From the IMG/VR virus record IMGVR_UViG_2778261066_000005: 12,377 bases of DNA, one strand, 5' to 3'. Of the stretch, positions 5,291 to 12,377 are shown piece by piece. Source of the stretch: a virus (lineage: Duplodnaviria > Heunggongvirae > Uroviricota > Caudoviricetes). Below the pieces are notes generated by a model. That model had not been told where the DNA came from, made no database searches, and worked only from the letters and a program-made list of their open reading frames with translations. The first letter of the stretch is position 1. Each line of letters begins with the position of its first letter. Both the position numbers and the translations under genes were made by a program.

Positions 5291-6340
5291 ATGCTTAATA
5301 CTGTAAAAATATCCAGTTGTGAGTTAATCAACGCCGACTGCCTGGAATTTATCCGGTCGTTACCCGAAAATTCTGTTGACCTGATAGTCACGGACCCGCC
5401 GTACTTTAAAGTGAAGCCTGAGGGCTGGGATAACCAGTGGAAGGGCGACGATGATTACCTGAAGTGGCTGGACCAGTGTCTGGCGCAGTTCTGGCGGGTG
5501 CTGAAACCTGCCGGAAGTCTTTACCTGTTCTGTGGTCATCGCCTGGCATCTGATATCGAAATCATGATGCGTGAACGCTTCAGTGTGCTGAACCATATTA
5601 TCTGGGCGAAGCCGTCCGGACGCTGGAACGGATGCAACAAGGAAAGCCTGCGGGCGTATTTCCCCGCCACAGAGCGCATTCTGTTCGCGGAACATTATCA
5701 GGGGCCGTATCGTCCGAAAGATGCCGGGTATGCGGCGAAGGGCAGTGCACTGAAACAGCATGTGATGGCCCCGCTGATTTCTTACTTTCGTGATGCGCGC
5801 GCGGCCCTGGGGATAACGGCAAAACAGATTGCAGATGCCACAGGAAAGAAAAACATGGTGTCGCACTGGTTCAGTGCCAGTCAGTGGCAGCTACCGAACG
5901 AAAGCGATTATCTGAAATTACAGTCGCTGTTTGCCCGGGTGGCAGAAGAGAAACATCAGCGCGGTGAACTGGAAAAGCCCCACCACCAGCTGGTGGATAC
6001 GTATACGTCACTGAACCGGCAGTATGTGGAGCTGCAGAGTGAATATAAGCATCTGCGGCGGTATTTTGGTGTGACGGCGCAGGTGCCGTACACGGATGTG
6101 TGGACACATAAACCGGTGCAGTTCTATCCCGGGAAACATCCGTGCGAAAAACCGGCAGAAATGCTGCAGCAGATAATCAGCGCAAGCAGTCGTCCGGGTG
6201 ACCTGGTTGCAGATTTTTTTATGGGCTCAGGTTCAACGGTAAAAGCGGCACTGGCGCTCGGGCGTCGTGCGATTGGCGTTGAGCTGGAGACCGGACGTTT
6301 TGAGCAGACAGTCAGGGAAGTTCAGGATTTAATCGTTTGA
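5291..6340 (+). CDS. Orphan beta-class amino-DNA methyltransferase (N6-adenine or N4-cytosine), 349 aa
   Basis: Motif IV DPPY at nt 5393-5404 (SVDLIVTDPPYF) near the N-terminus and motif I FxGxG (DLVADFFMGSGST) near the C-terminus, the beta-class order. No adjacent restriction endonuclease gene. Confidence 0.85.
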   Translation: MLNTVKISSCELINADCLEFIRSLPENSVDLIVTDPPYFKVKPEGWDNQWKGDDDYLKWLDQCLAQFWRVLKPAGSLYLFCGHRLASDIEIMMRERFSVLNHIIWAKPSGRWNGCNKESLRAYFPATERILFAEHYQGPYRPKDAGYAAKGSALKQHVMAPLISYFRDARAALGITAKQIADATGKKNMVSHWFSASQWQLPNESDYLKLQSLFARVAEEKHQRGELEKPHHQLVDTYTSLNRQYVELQSEYKHLRRYFGVTAQVPYTDVWTHKPVQFYPGKHPCEKPAEMLQQIISASSRPGDLVADFFMGSGSTVKAALALGRRAIGVELETGRFEQTVREVQDLIV

Positions 6341-6389
6341 AACGGATGAGATTGCAGAATTAATTACGCACCATTATTATTCTGCTCCC

Positions 6390-6465
6390 GGCCCTTTAGC
6401 TCAGTGGTGAGAGCGAGCGACTCATAATCGCCAGGTCGCTGGTTCAAATCCAGCAAGGGCCACCA
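6390..6465 (+). tRNA. ileZ: tRNA-Ile2 (anticodon CAU; ileX/ileZ-like), 76 nt with encoded CCA
   Basis: Hand-folded cloverleaf: acceptor GGCCCTT/AAGGGCC, D-arm GCTC-AGTGGTGA-GAGC, anticodon CAT at 6423-6425, T-loop TTCAAAT, discriminator A plus CCA. Closely resembles E. coli tRNA-Ile2 from memory; an elongator tRNA-Met cannot be excluded by eye. Confidence 0.8.
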
Positions 6466-6474
6466 TATCACATA

Positions 6475-6551
6475 CCACCATTAGCTCATCGGGATAGAGC
6501 GCCAGCCTTCGAAGCTGGTTGCGCGGGGTTCGAGTTCTCGATGGCGGTCCA
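6475..6551 (+). tRNA. tRNA-Arg (anticodon UCG), 77 nt, with non-canonical pairs
   Basis: Acceptor CCACCAT/ATGGCGG (one A-C mismatch), D-arm GCTC...GAGC, anticodon loop CTTCGAA (TCG at 6509-6511), T-loop TTCGAGT, CCA at 6549-6551. The T-stem contains two G-U pairs, so it may be partly degenerate. Confidence 0.6.
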
Positions 6552-6565
6552 TTTATCGGTATTCT

Positions 6566-6609
6566 GCGTTGTTAGCTCAGCCGGACAGAGCAATTGCCTT
6601 CTAAGCAGC
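6566..6609 (+). pseudogene. Truncated tRNA-Arg (UCU): 5' half only
   Basis: GCGTTGT-TA-GCTC-AGCCGGACA-GAGC-A-ATTGC-CTTCTAA-GCAGC gives acceptor 5' strand, D-arm and anticodon arm (TCT at 6600-6602). No T-arm and no ACAACGC acceptor 3' strand follow; a GT-rich tract follows instead. Confidence 0.5.
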
Positions 6610-6807
6610 TGTGGTTGCACTCCTGTTGTTTCTGGTGGTGATGGTGGACTTCAGCAGCCGGATAATGTCGGTGCTGTCTGATGGTGTTTTGGTGGCGGGT
6701 GTGTGGTTGTTGCTTTCCCGTTGCTGAAAAAGAAAGCATCAGGCGATTAGCAGGGTATCAGTTACACGTTGAAATTTTTAAATACCTCACAATTCCACAG
6801 CTTGATG

Positions 6808-7005
6808 ATTGTCTGGCTGCCGGAGAATTTGTTAAAAATTACATCGCATGGTGAATCCCCCTCAGCGGCGGGGCATCTGGCAAAGTGTATGATCCAGAGA
6901 ACATGCAAATTCAGTAGACAGGCTGAATTTACCGGGAGGCCCCTGGCACCATGCGACAGACAGAAATTAGGCTATACTTCAGCCCCTCTCCGGAGGGGCT
7001 TTTCT
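6808..7005 (+). repeat. Structured non-coding element, copy 1 (about 198 bp), terminator-capped
   Basis: Paralogous to 7277-7470. Shared blocks: ATTGTCTGGC, TTTGTTAAAAA, TCGCATGGTGAATCCCCCT, GAATT(T/C)ACCGGGAGGC(C/A)CC(T/C)GGCACCATGC, and terminal palindrome AGCCCCTC-TCCG-GAGGGGCT plus T-run. Confidence 0.7.
6981..7005 (+). terminator. Intrinsic terminator ending element copy 1
   Basis: 8-bp GC-rich stem AGCCCCTC/GAGGGGCT with TCCG loop, followed by TTTTCT. Confidence 0.65.
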
Positions 7006-7194
7006 GTGCAGGATGTGTCACAGTTTCCTGAATTCTGAGTACTGTCCTGTTACTCAGGGTGCTATATTTTCTGACGTGATGAAAGTCTGCCGGAAGGCGG
7101 AACGTATCGGAAATGACCCAGTAGAGAAAACGTTGACTCAGATACCGATGCTGAGTTACCGGGAAACCGGCATCACATGACCGCTATCCTTCCA

Positions 7195-7217
7195 GGCTCG
7201 CTCCGGCGGGCCTTTTT
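7195..7217 (+). terminator. Intrinsic terminator of the unit between the two copies
   Basis: Stem GGCTCGC / GCGGGCC (one G-U pair), loop TCCG (the same loop as the flanking terminators), then TTTTT (7213-7217). Confidence 0.55.
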
Positions 7218-7276
7218 ACTGCAGAAAACAGTTTTCCCGTAAAATGCCACGTTGCTCATAATTCAGGCTGGCGATT

Positions 7277-7470
7277 ATTGTCTGGCCGGCGGGAAGTTTG
7301 TTAAAAAATTTCGCATGGTGAATCCCCCTGTGCGGAGGGGTAATCAGCGAGTAGGTATATGGGATAATCGCGGATTCAGGTGCTGGTACTGAATTCACCG
7401 GGAGGCACCCGGCACCATGCAATGGCACATAGCGCCACTCTCCAGCCCCTCTCCGGAGGGGCTGTTTATA
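7277..7470 (+). repeat. Structured non-coding element, copy 2 (about 194 bp), terminator-capped
   Basis: Paralogous to 6808-7005; the 19-nt block TCGCATGGTGAATCCCCCT is identical (7311-7329 versus 6844-6862); the same terminal palindrome sits at 7444-7463. Confidence 0.7.
7444..7470 (+). terminator. Intrinsic terminator ending element copy 2 (weak U-tract)
   Basis: AGCCCCTC-TCCG-GAGGGGCT followed by GTTTATATTG. Confidence 0.5.
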
Positions 7471-7498
7471 TTGATTTTGTCAGATGTGAGTAAACTCC

Positions 7499-7834
7499 TT
7501 ATGGACTTTGTTGTTTTAGCCCATAAGGACATATTTGCAGAGTGCAACGGTTATTAAAGCATTCATTCAATACGTTATCTGTATTTGTAGGGCATTCCTG
7601 GCTGTTTTTGATTAAATTCCAGAATGTTTTATTGAATGGTACTACGTTGTAAATGGTTACAGGTAGCACTTTGTTATTGAGCATGATGCCTGTGTGAGTC
7701 AGTGTAAATATACTTTCAGGAGGTAAGAAAGCATCCGATTGATACCAGATTATTAATTTTATTTTACTCCATATGACTGAAAAAGATATTCCGCATGATG
7801 GCTGGATAACTGTATCAATCACAATCCACTTCAT
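7499..7834 (-). CDS. Hypothetical protein, 111 aa, in an AT-rich island; the only candidate gene on the minus strand
   Basis: ORF with AAGGAAA about 6 nt upstream of its ATG on the minus strand. Base composition is much more AT-rich than the flanking phage genes. No motif recognised; it could be spurious. Confidence 0.3.
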
Positions 7835-8079
7835 TTAGTTTCCTTGTTTATGCCTTGCTGGTGATGTTCTGAAAAGTATAAATGATATTTTTGATTGTAA
7901 ACCATAGAGCAGAATTATTTTTCTGATGTTGTTTATTGTTTATTTAAATGCAGGGTGGTTTATATCTCGTCTTGTAGTTTATCCATGCATATCTGCTTGA
8001 TGATGAGGTTTTTATTTAAGGTATGGTTTTGTGTTTTTTCTGTATTACATGTCAGGTATTTTAAAGAATCATTTTTCAG

Positions 8080-11225: not shown

Positions 11226-11680
11226 GCAGAGTCGCAGCGATTATTTATACTCTGGTTATCTGCACCATCGTCTGCCTGTCATGGGCTGTTAATCATTACC
11301 GCGATAACGCCATTACCTACAAAGCCCAGCGCGACAAAAATGCCAGAGAACTGAAGCTGGCGAACGTGGTAATTACTGACATGCAGATGCGTCAGCGTGA
11401 TGTAGCAGAACTCGACGCCAGATACACAAAGGAGCTTGCTGATGCTAACGCGACTATCGAAAGTCTTCGTGCTGATGTTTCTGCTGGGCGTAAGCGCCTG
11501 CAAGTCGCCGCCACCTGTGCAAAGTCAACGACCGGAGCCAGCAGCATGGGCGATGGAGAAAGCCCAAGACTTACAGCAGATGCTGAACTCAATTATTACC
11601 GTCTCCGAAGTGGAATCGACAAGATAACCGCTCAGGTCAACTACCTGCAGGAGTACATCAGGACGCAGTGCTTAAAATAA
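11222..11680 (+). CDS. Rz: i-spanin Rz, 152 aa
   Basis: GTG 11222 overlaps the R stop (GTGA). Protein (M)[46 protein letters not shown]... is near-identical to lambda Rz as recalled; N-terminal transmembrane segment plus coiled-coil periplasmic domain. Confidence 0.9.
11442..11627 (+). CDS. Rz1: o-spanin Rz1, lipoprotein encoded in the +1 frame inside Rz, 61 aa
   Basis: ATG 11442 with AAAGGAG 7 nt upstream; signal peptide [19 protein letters not shown] followed by the lipobox Cys (VSAC), then a Pro-rich mature region ([12 protein letters not shown]); lies wholly within Rz. Confidence 0.8.
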
Positions 11681-11716
11681 TTTTAATTTCACTGAAATTT
11701 AATACGTGACTTTCAG

Positions 11717-11747
11717 GAAAATGCCTCGCAGATGCGGGGCATTTTTG
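11717..11747 (+). terminator. Intrinsic terminator after the lysis cassette
   Basis: Stem ATGCCTCGC(A) (11721-11730) / (T)GCGGGGCAT (11733-11742) with one G-U pair, then TTTTT (11742-11746), 40 nt after the Rz stop. Confidence 0.6.
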
Positions 11748-12062
11748 TACAGGTATTTCACCGCGCACCGCAGCGCACTCAACCACGTCGAACCAAACCC
11801 TTTGGAATGAGCCTTTGAGTAGTCAGTTAGTGCTGGTGAGCCTTGACGGGCTGATCTCCTATGCCGCAAAGGTTCATCTCAAAGTAAGACGAACGCTATG
11901 ACAAACCAAGATTCTATAGACCTATCTGATCTTCGTGGAATGGTCAGTTTTCCAGACAAAAGGTAATCACCATAGTCGTATGGCTATGAATCTTGTTGCT
12001 GCAGATAAGCATTTTGTGATTGAAGTGGTCAAATCTCTCAAATGCAGTAAAATGCAGTGCGC

Positions 12063-12068
12063 TATAAT
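12063..12068 (+). promoter_or_regulatory. Consensus -10 hexamer TATAAT upstream of the terminal ORF
   Basis: Perfect TATAAT at 12063-12068, 28 nt upstream of ATG 12097; no convincing -35 found. Confidence 0.35.
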
Positions 12069-12096
12069 TCAATAACGGAGGGAGTAAGGAGAAGTC

Positions 12097-12303
12097 ATGA
12101 AAGATCAAGATGTTAGGTTCGCGGTGCATCATAAGCTTTTGAAAGAATCGCATTTAGATCCAGACTGCCTTGTGGTCGATGAATTTTCCATATCCCTTGG
12201 CGCCAGTAGAGCAGACATTGCTGTAATAAATGGTGTTATACACGGGTACGAGCTCAAAAGTGAATATGACTCTTTGGAGCGTTTGCCTCTTCAAATCAAG
12301 TGA
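12097..12303 (+). CDS. Hypothetical protein with PD-(D/E)xK-like motif, 68 aa as read; probably an N-terminal fragment or frameshifted
   Basis: Very strong Shine-Dalgarno GGAGGGAGTAAGGAGAAG directly upstream of ATG 12097. D-x-E and E-x-K spacing (VVDEF ... GYELKSE) resembles a restriction-endonuclease-like fold. The stop is TGA 12301-12303, but the -1 frame stays open to the window end. Confidence 0.5.
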   Translation: MKDQDVRFAVHHKLLKESHLDPDCLVVDEFSISLGASRADIAVINGVIHGYELKSEYDSLERLPLQIK

Positions 12304-12377
12304 ACCGCCCCGGGTTTCCTGGAGAGTGTTTTATCTGTGAACTCAGGCTGCCAGATCATCGTTTCCGATGGAAGCAT

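Follow-up and report, generated by a model that had tools for sequence, protein, structure and literature searches.

A 68-codon open reading frame at the end of a lambdoid prophage contig as the 5' fragment of a P4 cII-like gene cut by IS629/IS1203

The gop-beta-cII system of phage P4 protects against lambda and P1, and its component gop is toxic when beta is lacking (PMC9122126). Toxicity of gop-beta-cII is triggered by the phage accessory gene orf184 (bioRxiv 10.1101/2023.04.06.535777). In P4, cII and beta are convergent and gop is oriented like beta (cII -> <- beta <- gop); the cII product goes by the RefSeq name 'sce7726 family protein'. A beta-like protein is also part of PD-lambda-2, whose component C is needed for defence against lambda-vir and has been described as related to a P4 antitoxin (PMC9519451, Vassallo et al. 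2022). The partners of this beta-like protein in PD-lambda-2 are a HigB-like protein and an Xre-peptidase fusion instead of a cII-like nuclease. Here, we analysed a 12,377-nt stretch of Caudoviricetes DNA (contig PTRT01000130.1 of assembly GCA_002965745.1, hereafter the window), which ends shortly after a short open reading frame (ORF), and compared the gene from which this ORF appears to derive with the systems above. The product of the intact gene is of the same family as P4 cII, has the conserved E, D, E-x-K and Q residues and is encoded next to a convergent beta gene. It matches P4 cII over its full length with 26.8% identity (E 5e-12), whereas it is shorter (206 aa compared to 264 aa) and is encoded in the slot between Rz and Nu1 of a lambdoid prophage rather than in the P4 hotspot. 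The convergent beta gene, which lies outside the window, resembles component C of PD-lambda-2.

The ORF under study starts with ATG at position 12097 of the plus strand and comprises 68 codons up to a TGA at 12301-12303, exactly as read in the first-pass annotation. Its product (MKDQDVRFAVHHKLLKESHLDPDCLVVDEFSISLGASRADIAVINGVIHGYELKSEYDSLERLPLQIK) displays the D...E-x-K spacing that had been remarked upon, formed by D40 and E52-L-K54, and additionally carries E29 and Q66, while everything from H69 on is absent. The strong Shine-Dalgarno sequence attributed to the ORF is likewise present (GGAGGGAGTAAGGAG at 12077-12091; TAAGGAG terminates 5 nt 5' of the ATG). The TATAAT motif at 12063-12068 also exists, but the weight given to it as a promoter did not stand: the motif occurs five times in the window as compared to 5.4 occurrences expected, it has no acceptable -35 partner and the promoter scan made no call at this position, and the promoter claim was dropped on these grounds. 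The 68-aa product scores 79.6 bits on the NCBIfam model NF033832 (sce7726 family; cut-off 70), covering model positions 1-68 of 184, and thus represents a truncated member of the family and not the full-length domain of about 184 model positions. It is further matched by the PADLOC 'cll' model (E 1.3e-15), and a precomputed annotation with PF26915 (Phage_P4_cII) exists for it; our local copy of Pfam returned no match for the cII-like protein.

The complete gene is found in Escherichia coli DA33133. Pairwise alignment of window positions 11681-12300 with this genome revealed 619 identical bases out of 620, followed by complete divergence from 12301 on. In DA33133, this ATG is the start of an intact 206-codon gene annotated as "sce7726 family protein" (P4 cII family), of which the window retains codons 1-68 at 12097-12300 (plus strand; PD-(D/E)xK nuclease-like), this segment being identical by alignment to positions 6198-6401 of locus L001. 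Behind codon 68, the intact gene continues with CAT TAT TCT, encoding H69, Y70 and S71 (intact allele past the break site: CATTATTC), whereas the window reads TGAACCGCCCCGGGTTTCCTGGAGA... instead. The intact allele scores 184.1 bits on NF033832 (cut-off 70) and is recognized by the PADLOC cII model of the gop-beta-cII system (E 3.8e-31). In total, 127 complete E. coli genomes contain the 401 bases at 11900-12300 with an identity of 99% or more (100% among the 40 listed), and wherever these bases match in complete E. coli genomes they lie beneath a gene annotated "sce7726 family protein". A DNA search of the phage collection with the gene region gave no match. In DA33133, the cII-like gene is convergent with a 355-codon gene annotated "beta family protein", which it overlaps by 59 nt, and the pair is located between an Rz-type lysis gene and the gene for the small terminase subunit (NZ_CP029574.1 3041341-3043167, counting the region upstream of the pair). 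The first-pass annotation had placed the ORF in an accessory slot following Rz, and this agrees with the position of the intact pair.

The sequence that replaces the remainder of the gene belongs to a mobile element. With an 80-nt query comprising positions 12298-12377, 4198 records were matched at an identity of 99% or more, the annotation being that of an IS3/IS1203 transposase on the minus strand; of 5426 complete E. coli genomes, 4068 contain this sequence, at a median of three places per genome. Positions 12301-12377 are the terminal 77 bases of an IS629/IS1203 element (IS3 family) in reverse orientation; the contig ends here. They begin with the 25-nt terminal inverted repeat (12301-12325; TGAACCGCCCCGGG...), the first three bases of which, TGA, read as an in-frame stop, and they include, at 12343-12377 on the minus strand, the 3' end of the transposase gene (orfB part), namely its last 11 codons and the stop codon at 12345-12343. 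This position was derived from the annotated coding sequence of L003, a further IS1203 copy in E. coli that contains the identical 80-nt match, and is in accordance with the gene call in the sibling assembly introduced below. Since the transposase is encoded on the strand opposite to the ORF and stops at 12345-12343, the TGA of the ORF represents the first bases of the inverted repeat, and the reading frame adjacent to it is antisense to the transposase gene.

These data bear directly on the earlier proposal that a frameshift at around position 12300, in a pseudogene or as a programmed event, ends the ORF, so that the protein would continue in the adjacent frame. This frame is indeed open from 12303 to the window edge at 12377 on the plus strand, which gave the proposal its appeal. 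The significance attached to it has to be withdrawn, as the open stretch amounts to 25 codons of IS sequence; by our own arithmetic, 25 open codons arise by chance with a probability of (61/64)^25, i.e. ~0.3, and the openness is thus not unusual. Moreover, the adjacent frame reads NRPGFPGECFICELRLPDHRFRWKH, does not resemble the intact protein over residues 69-206 and, as judged from the sibling contig, closes 27 codons past the window edge, whereas the true continuation of the gene follows 1310 bp further on and the DNA from 12301 on is the IS end present in most complete E. coli genomes. A frameshift was rejected based on the alignment with the intact gene and on the contig that reads through the junction, and we consider its probability close to nil; what is found instead is a 1310-bp IS629/IS1203 element inserted after codon 68.

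The far side of the element was read from this sibling assembly, GCA_022833075.1 (locus L004 in a 4.69-Mb contig), and not from the isolate of the window. The two assemblies are identical over the 1078 bases compared (window positions 11300-12377). In the sibling, the IS occupies positions 6205-7514 (1310 bp) and is flanked by AAG at 6202-6204 and 7515-7517. The trinucleotide occurs as a single copy in the intact gene and on both sides of the IS in the sibling, and the window contains the left copy only (12298-12300). Both 25-nt inverted repeats are present, start with TG and are 92% complementary, and the full 1310 bp are 97.4-97.8% identical over the whole length to annotated IS629 copies in Stx phages. 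The transposase gene was called at 6247-7460 on the minus strand, with a 404-aa product comprising HTH_Tnp_1 and rve domains; for the transposase of L003, RefSeq records a 'programmed frameshift'. TG-initial inverted repeats, a length of ~1.3 kb, a 3-bp duplication of the target site and a DDE (rve) transposase whose production involves an orfA-orfB frameshift are the hallmarks of IS3-family IS629/IS1203 elements, and all of them are seen here. Behind the IS, the reading frame corresponds to residues 69-206 of the intact protein (138 codons). The order of genes in the sibling is 68-aa ORF, transposase (minus strand), a 161-aa Phage_P4_cII fragment, Beta_protein (minus strand), Nu1 and large terminase, and the Beta_protein gene, which is located beyond the window edge, is intact. 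As an aside, the 161-aa product predicted at 7449-7934 of the sibling locus results from the gene caller fusing ~22 codons of the left IS end in frame to residues 69-206.

We therefore regard the ORF, with a probability of about 0.96, as the 5' fragment of a 206-codon prophage gene of the sce7726 / P4 cII family that was cut by IS629/IS1203. Transposition of the 1310-bp IS3-family element would have placed it behind codon 68, oriented against the gene, with the first three bases of its inverted repeat happening to provide an in-frame stop codon. On the far side of the ~1.3-kb IS, the sequence would then resume with AAG-CATTATTCTTCTG..., followed by the rest of the gene. The short-read contig presumably breaks 77 bases into this multi-copy IS, which would explain why the window lacks the remainder of the gene.

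A contig end inside a multi-copy IS is where short-read assemblies are least reliable, and the junction might in principle have been created in sequencing or assembly, for instance by a chimeric contig end joining unique sequence to a repeat. Sequencing error had also been raised in the first-pass annotation, and the absence of the junction from all 5426 complete E. coli genomes searched would fit such an origin. Against it stands the second assembly, in which the same junction is embedded in the 4.69-Mb contig together with the full IS, both IS ends and a clean duplication of AAG; a clean 3-bp duplication is a signature of real transposition and thus counts against an artefact, which we hold to be very improbable. 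The junction was also not found in viral contigs, GTDB representative genomes or JGI metagenome contigs. As it is missing from the complete-genome, viral, GTDB and JGI collections, the insertion is documented in two assemblies only. In this respect it differs from other IS629/IS1203 insertions in E. coli prophages, e.g. those in Stx phages, which it resembles in the length of 1310 bp, the 25-nt repeats and the 3-bp duplication. Five short, unrelated public contigs from short reads (L006-L010) encode the same 68-aa product and end at the AAG site or at most 2 nt from it, without the junction; in two cases the site is followed by C or CA, matching the intact allele. We set these contigs aside as evidence for the junction. 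Their ends could reflect a mixture of intact and IS-disrupted alleles or, alternatively, a selection effect of the look-up by exact product.

Regardless of its origin, the ORF could in theory encode a small protein in its own right that ends at a conserved stop, an idea to which its strong ribosome-binding site and its score above the NF033832 cut-off lend some colour. Yet the match ends at model position 68 of 184, the stop codon comes from IS sequence and the coding region is cut within a predicted helix, ahead of most of the beta-sheet. Furthermore, homologues with a consistent length of ~68 aa, which had been named in advance as the observation that would speak against truncation, were not seen: 314 homologues were retrieved at E <= 1e-5, and the best 120 of them are mostly 186-221 aa long with none near 68. 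The length comparison thus fails to refute truncation, and the chance that the ORF is a bona fide small protein appears minute.

To describe what the insertion removes, we turned to the intact protein. Residues E29, D40, E52, K54 and Q66 are invariant in 39 diverse members of the family and in P4 cII, and Y70 is nearly invariant, which yields a Q66-x-x-x-Y70 motif. An AlphaFold2 model of the intact protein, built from the alignment of the 39 diverse members, is confident (pLDDT 90, pTM 0.84) and displays a restriction-endonuclease-like alpha/beta core with the acidic residues and E-x-K on consecutive strands, as is typical for PD-(D/E)xK enzymes. According to this model, the intact protein has a PD-(D/E)xK fold and is predicted to be nuclease-like. 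The earlier suspicion that the ORF represents the beginning of a larger, interrupted gene for a protein with a restriction-endonuclease fold was thereby borne out, given that an intact 206-aa allele exists and models in this way. The closest minimal PD-(D/E)xK nucleases are the MmcB-like / SPO1766 protein (PDB 3dnx), the nuclease domain of Can2 and NucS; unlike these, the intact protein possesses an additional helical region at its C-terminus (residues ~126-182). A profile search of PDB sequences returned only chance-level matches, and a sequence relationship of the intact protein to any solved structure was not detectable. The insertion after K68 cuts the helix at residues 63-73 between Q66 and Y70, and as judged from the model the stub lacks strands 76-82, 98-104 and 110-116 as well as the C-terminal helical domain. 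With the cut inside this helix and the strands and C-terminal helices missing, the stub is presumably unable to form the fold and probably non-functional.

The region between Rz and the ORF, in which the first-pass annotation had seen short broken ORFs (11760-12060), turned out to be a non-coding stretch rather than a set of broken genes, consisting of P22-like intergenic DNA followed by the leader of the module. Positions 11681-11901 (plus strand) form a non-coding boundary in common with phage P22, reaching from the end of Rz to the start codon of rha, and are 86% identical to P22 39435-39647 (gene 15 (Rz) end to rha). They contain a terminator-like, conserved hairpin at 11717-11746, located between A and T runs (-20.2 kcal/mol, z = -5.2), for which a simple terminator scan made no call. 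Positions 11902-12096 (plus strand) are the module's own 5' untranslated region, comprising the TATAAT and Shine-Dalgarno sequences described above, and are identical to the sequence upstream of the intact gene in DA33133. The homology with P22 stops exactly at the ATG of rha, so the cII-like/beta module fills the slot held by rha in P22. Hence, comparison of the two sequences marks 11681-11901 as a mosaic boundary at which rha has given way to the cII-like/beta module.

Several further accessory genes were observed in the window. A Rosmer-type defence pair is encoded on the plus strand by two overlapping ORFs upstream of the DUF968, RusA and Q antiterminator genes: a 216-aa ORF at 66-716 (PADLOC RmrT, E 4.6e-25) and a 368-aa ORF at 694-1800 with Pfam HTH_3 and Peptidase_M78 domains (PADLOC RmrA, E 6e-105). 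An N6/N4 DNA methyltransferase gene at 5291-6340 (plus strand; Pfam N6_N4_Mtase, PADLOC MTase_II E 4e-167) has no adjacent restriction gene and looks like a prophage orphan methylase. It is followed on its 3' side by two prophage tRNA genes on the plus strand, one with anticodon CAT (6390-6465) and one for tRNA-Arg(TCG) (6475-6551). At the equivalent position of DA33133, which was located by its place 3' of the same methylase and was not aligned, RefSeq annotates a 76-nt tRNA-Ile, and on this basis the tRNA with anticodon CAT in the window may be an Ile tRNA of the lysidine type. Two full-length copies of the Rfam sRNA STnc100 are present at 6816-7009 and 7285-7473 (plus strand), with scores of 138 and 132.5 bits, respectively, at a gathering score of 47; they flank the region before an IraM/PmrD-like gene on the minus strand (7499-7834).

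The partner gene of the intact locus scores 190 bits on Pfam Beta_protein, is matched by the PADLOC models PD-Lambda-2_C (E 4.4e-32) and 'beta' (E 3.5e-10) and encodes a product with 22% identity to P4 beta. A convergent Beta_protein partner was seen in DA33133, in the sibling assembly, in P4, in phage Rac-SA53 and in loci of Enterobacteriaceae, Acinetobacter and Vibrio. The E. coli locus thus has the same convergent cII-like/beta arrangement as P4 but without gop: no gop-sized ORF is present upstream of beta in the intact locus, and gop is also absent from the other loci examined, i.e. Rac-SA53 and mobile elements of Enterobacteriaceae, Acinetobacter and Vibrio. Accordingly, two of the three genes that make up P4 gop-beta-cII have counterparts here. 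By analogy with the P4 system, the intact gop-less cII-like/beta pair is plausibly a defence or exclusion module related to gop-beta-cII, and the nuclease-like protein is likely the effector of the pair. A bolder and rather doubtful proposal is that the gop-less pair might be a self-contained anti-phage or exclusion module, in which the PD-(D/E)xK protein would serve as effector and beta as sensor or regulator, gop being an optional addition specific to P4.

Taken together, the cause of the early stop is ordinary: a known accessory gene is cut by a known insertion sequence at a contig end. For annotation, the case illustrates that a well-signalled short ORF at the end of a contig can mimic a frameshifted or novel gene where a multi-copy insertion sequence has merely cut a gene and caused the assembly to break. 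For the prophage, it means that a lambdoid element carried a P4 cII-like/beta module in the slot of P22 rha and that the nuclease-like half of this module was lost to IS629. If the stub is non-functional and the pair operates as a module, as we infer, the prophage has probably lost the function of this module. The two-gene form without gop, present in a variety of mobile elements, is a candidate for an autonomous defence system. Should the proposal of a self-contained module hold true, the latter would be spread over prophages and satellites of Enterobacteriaceae, Vibrio and Acinetobacter, and the IS629 insertion would represent a natural knock-out of the effector that is tolerated because beta alone is harmless.
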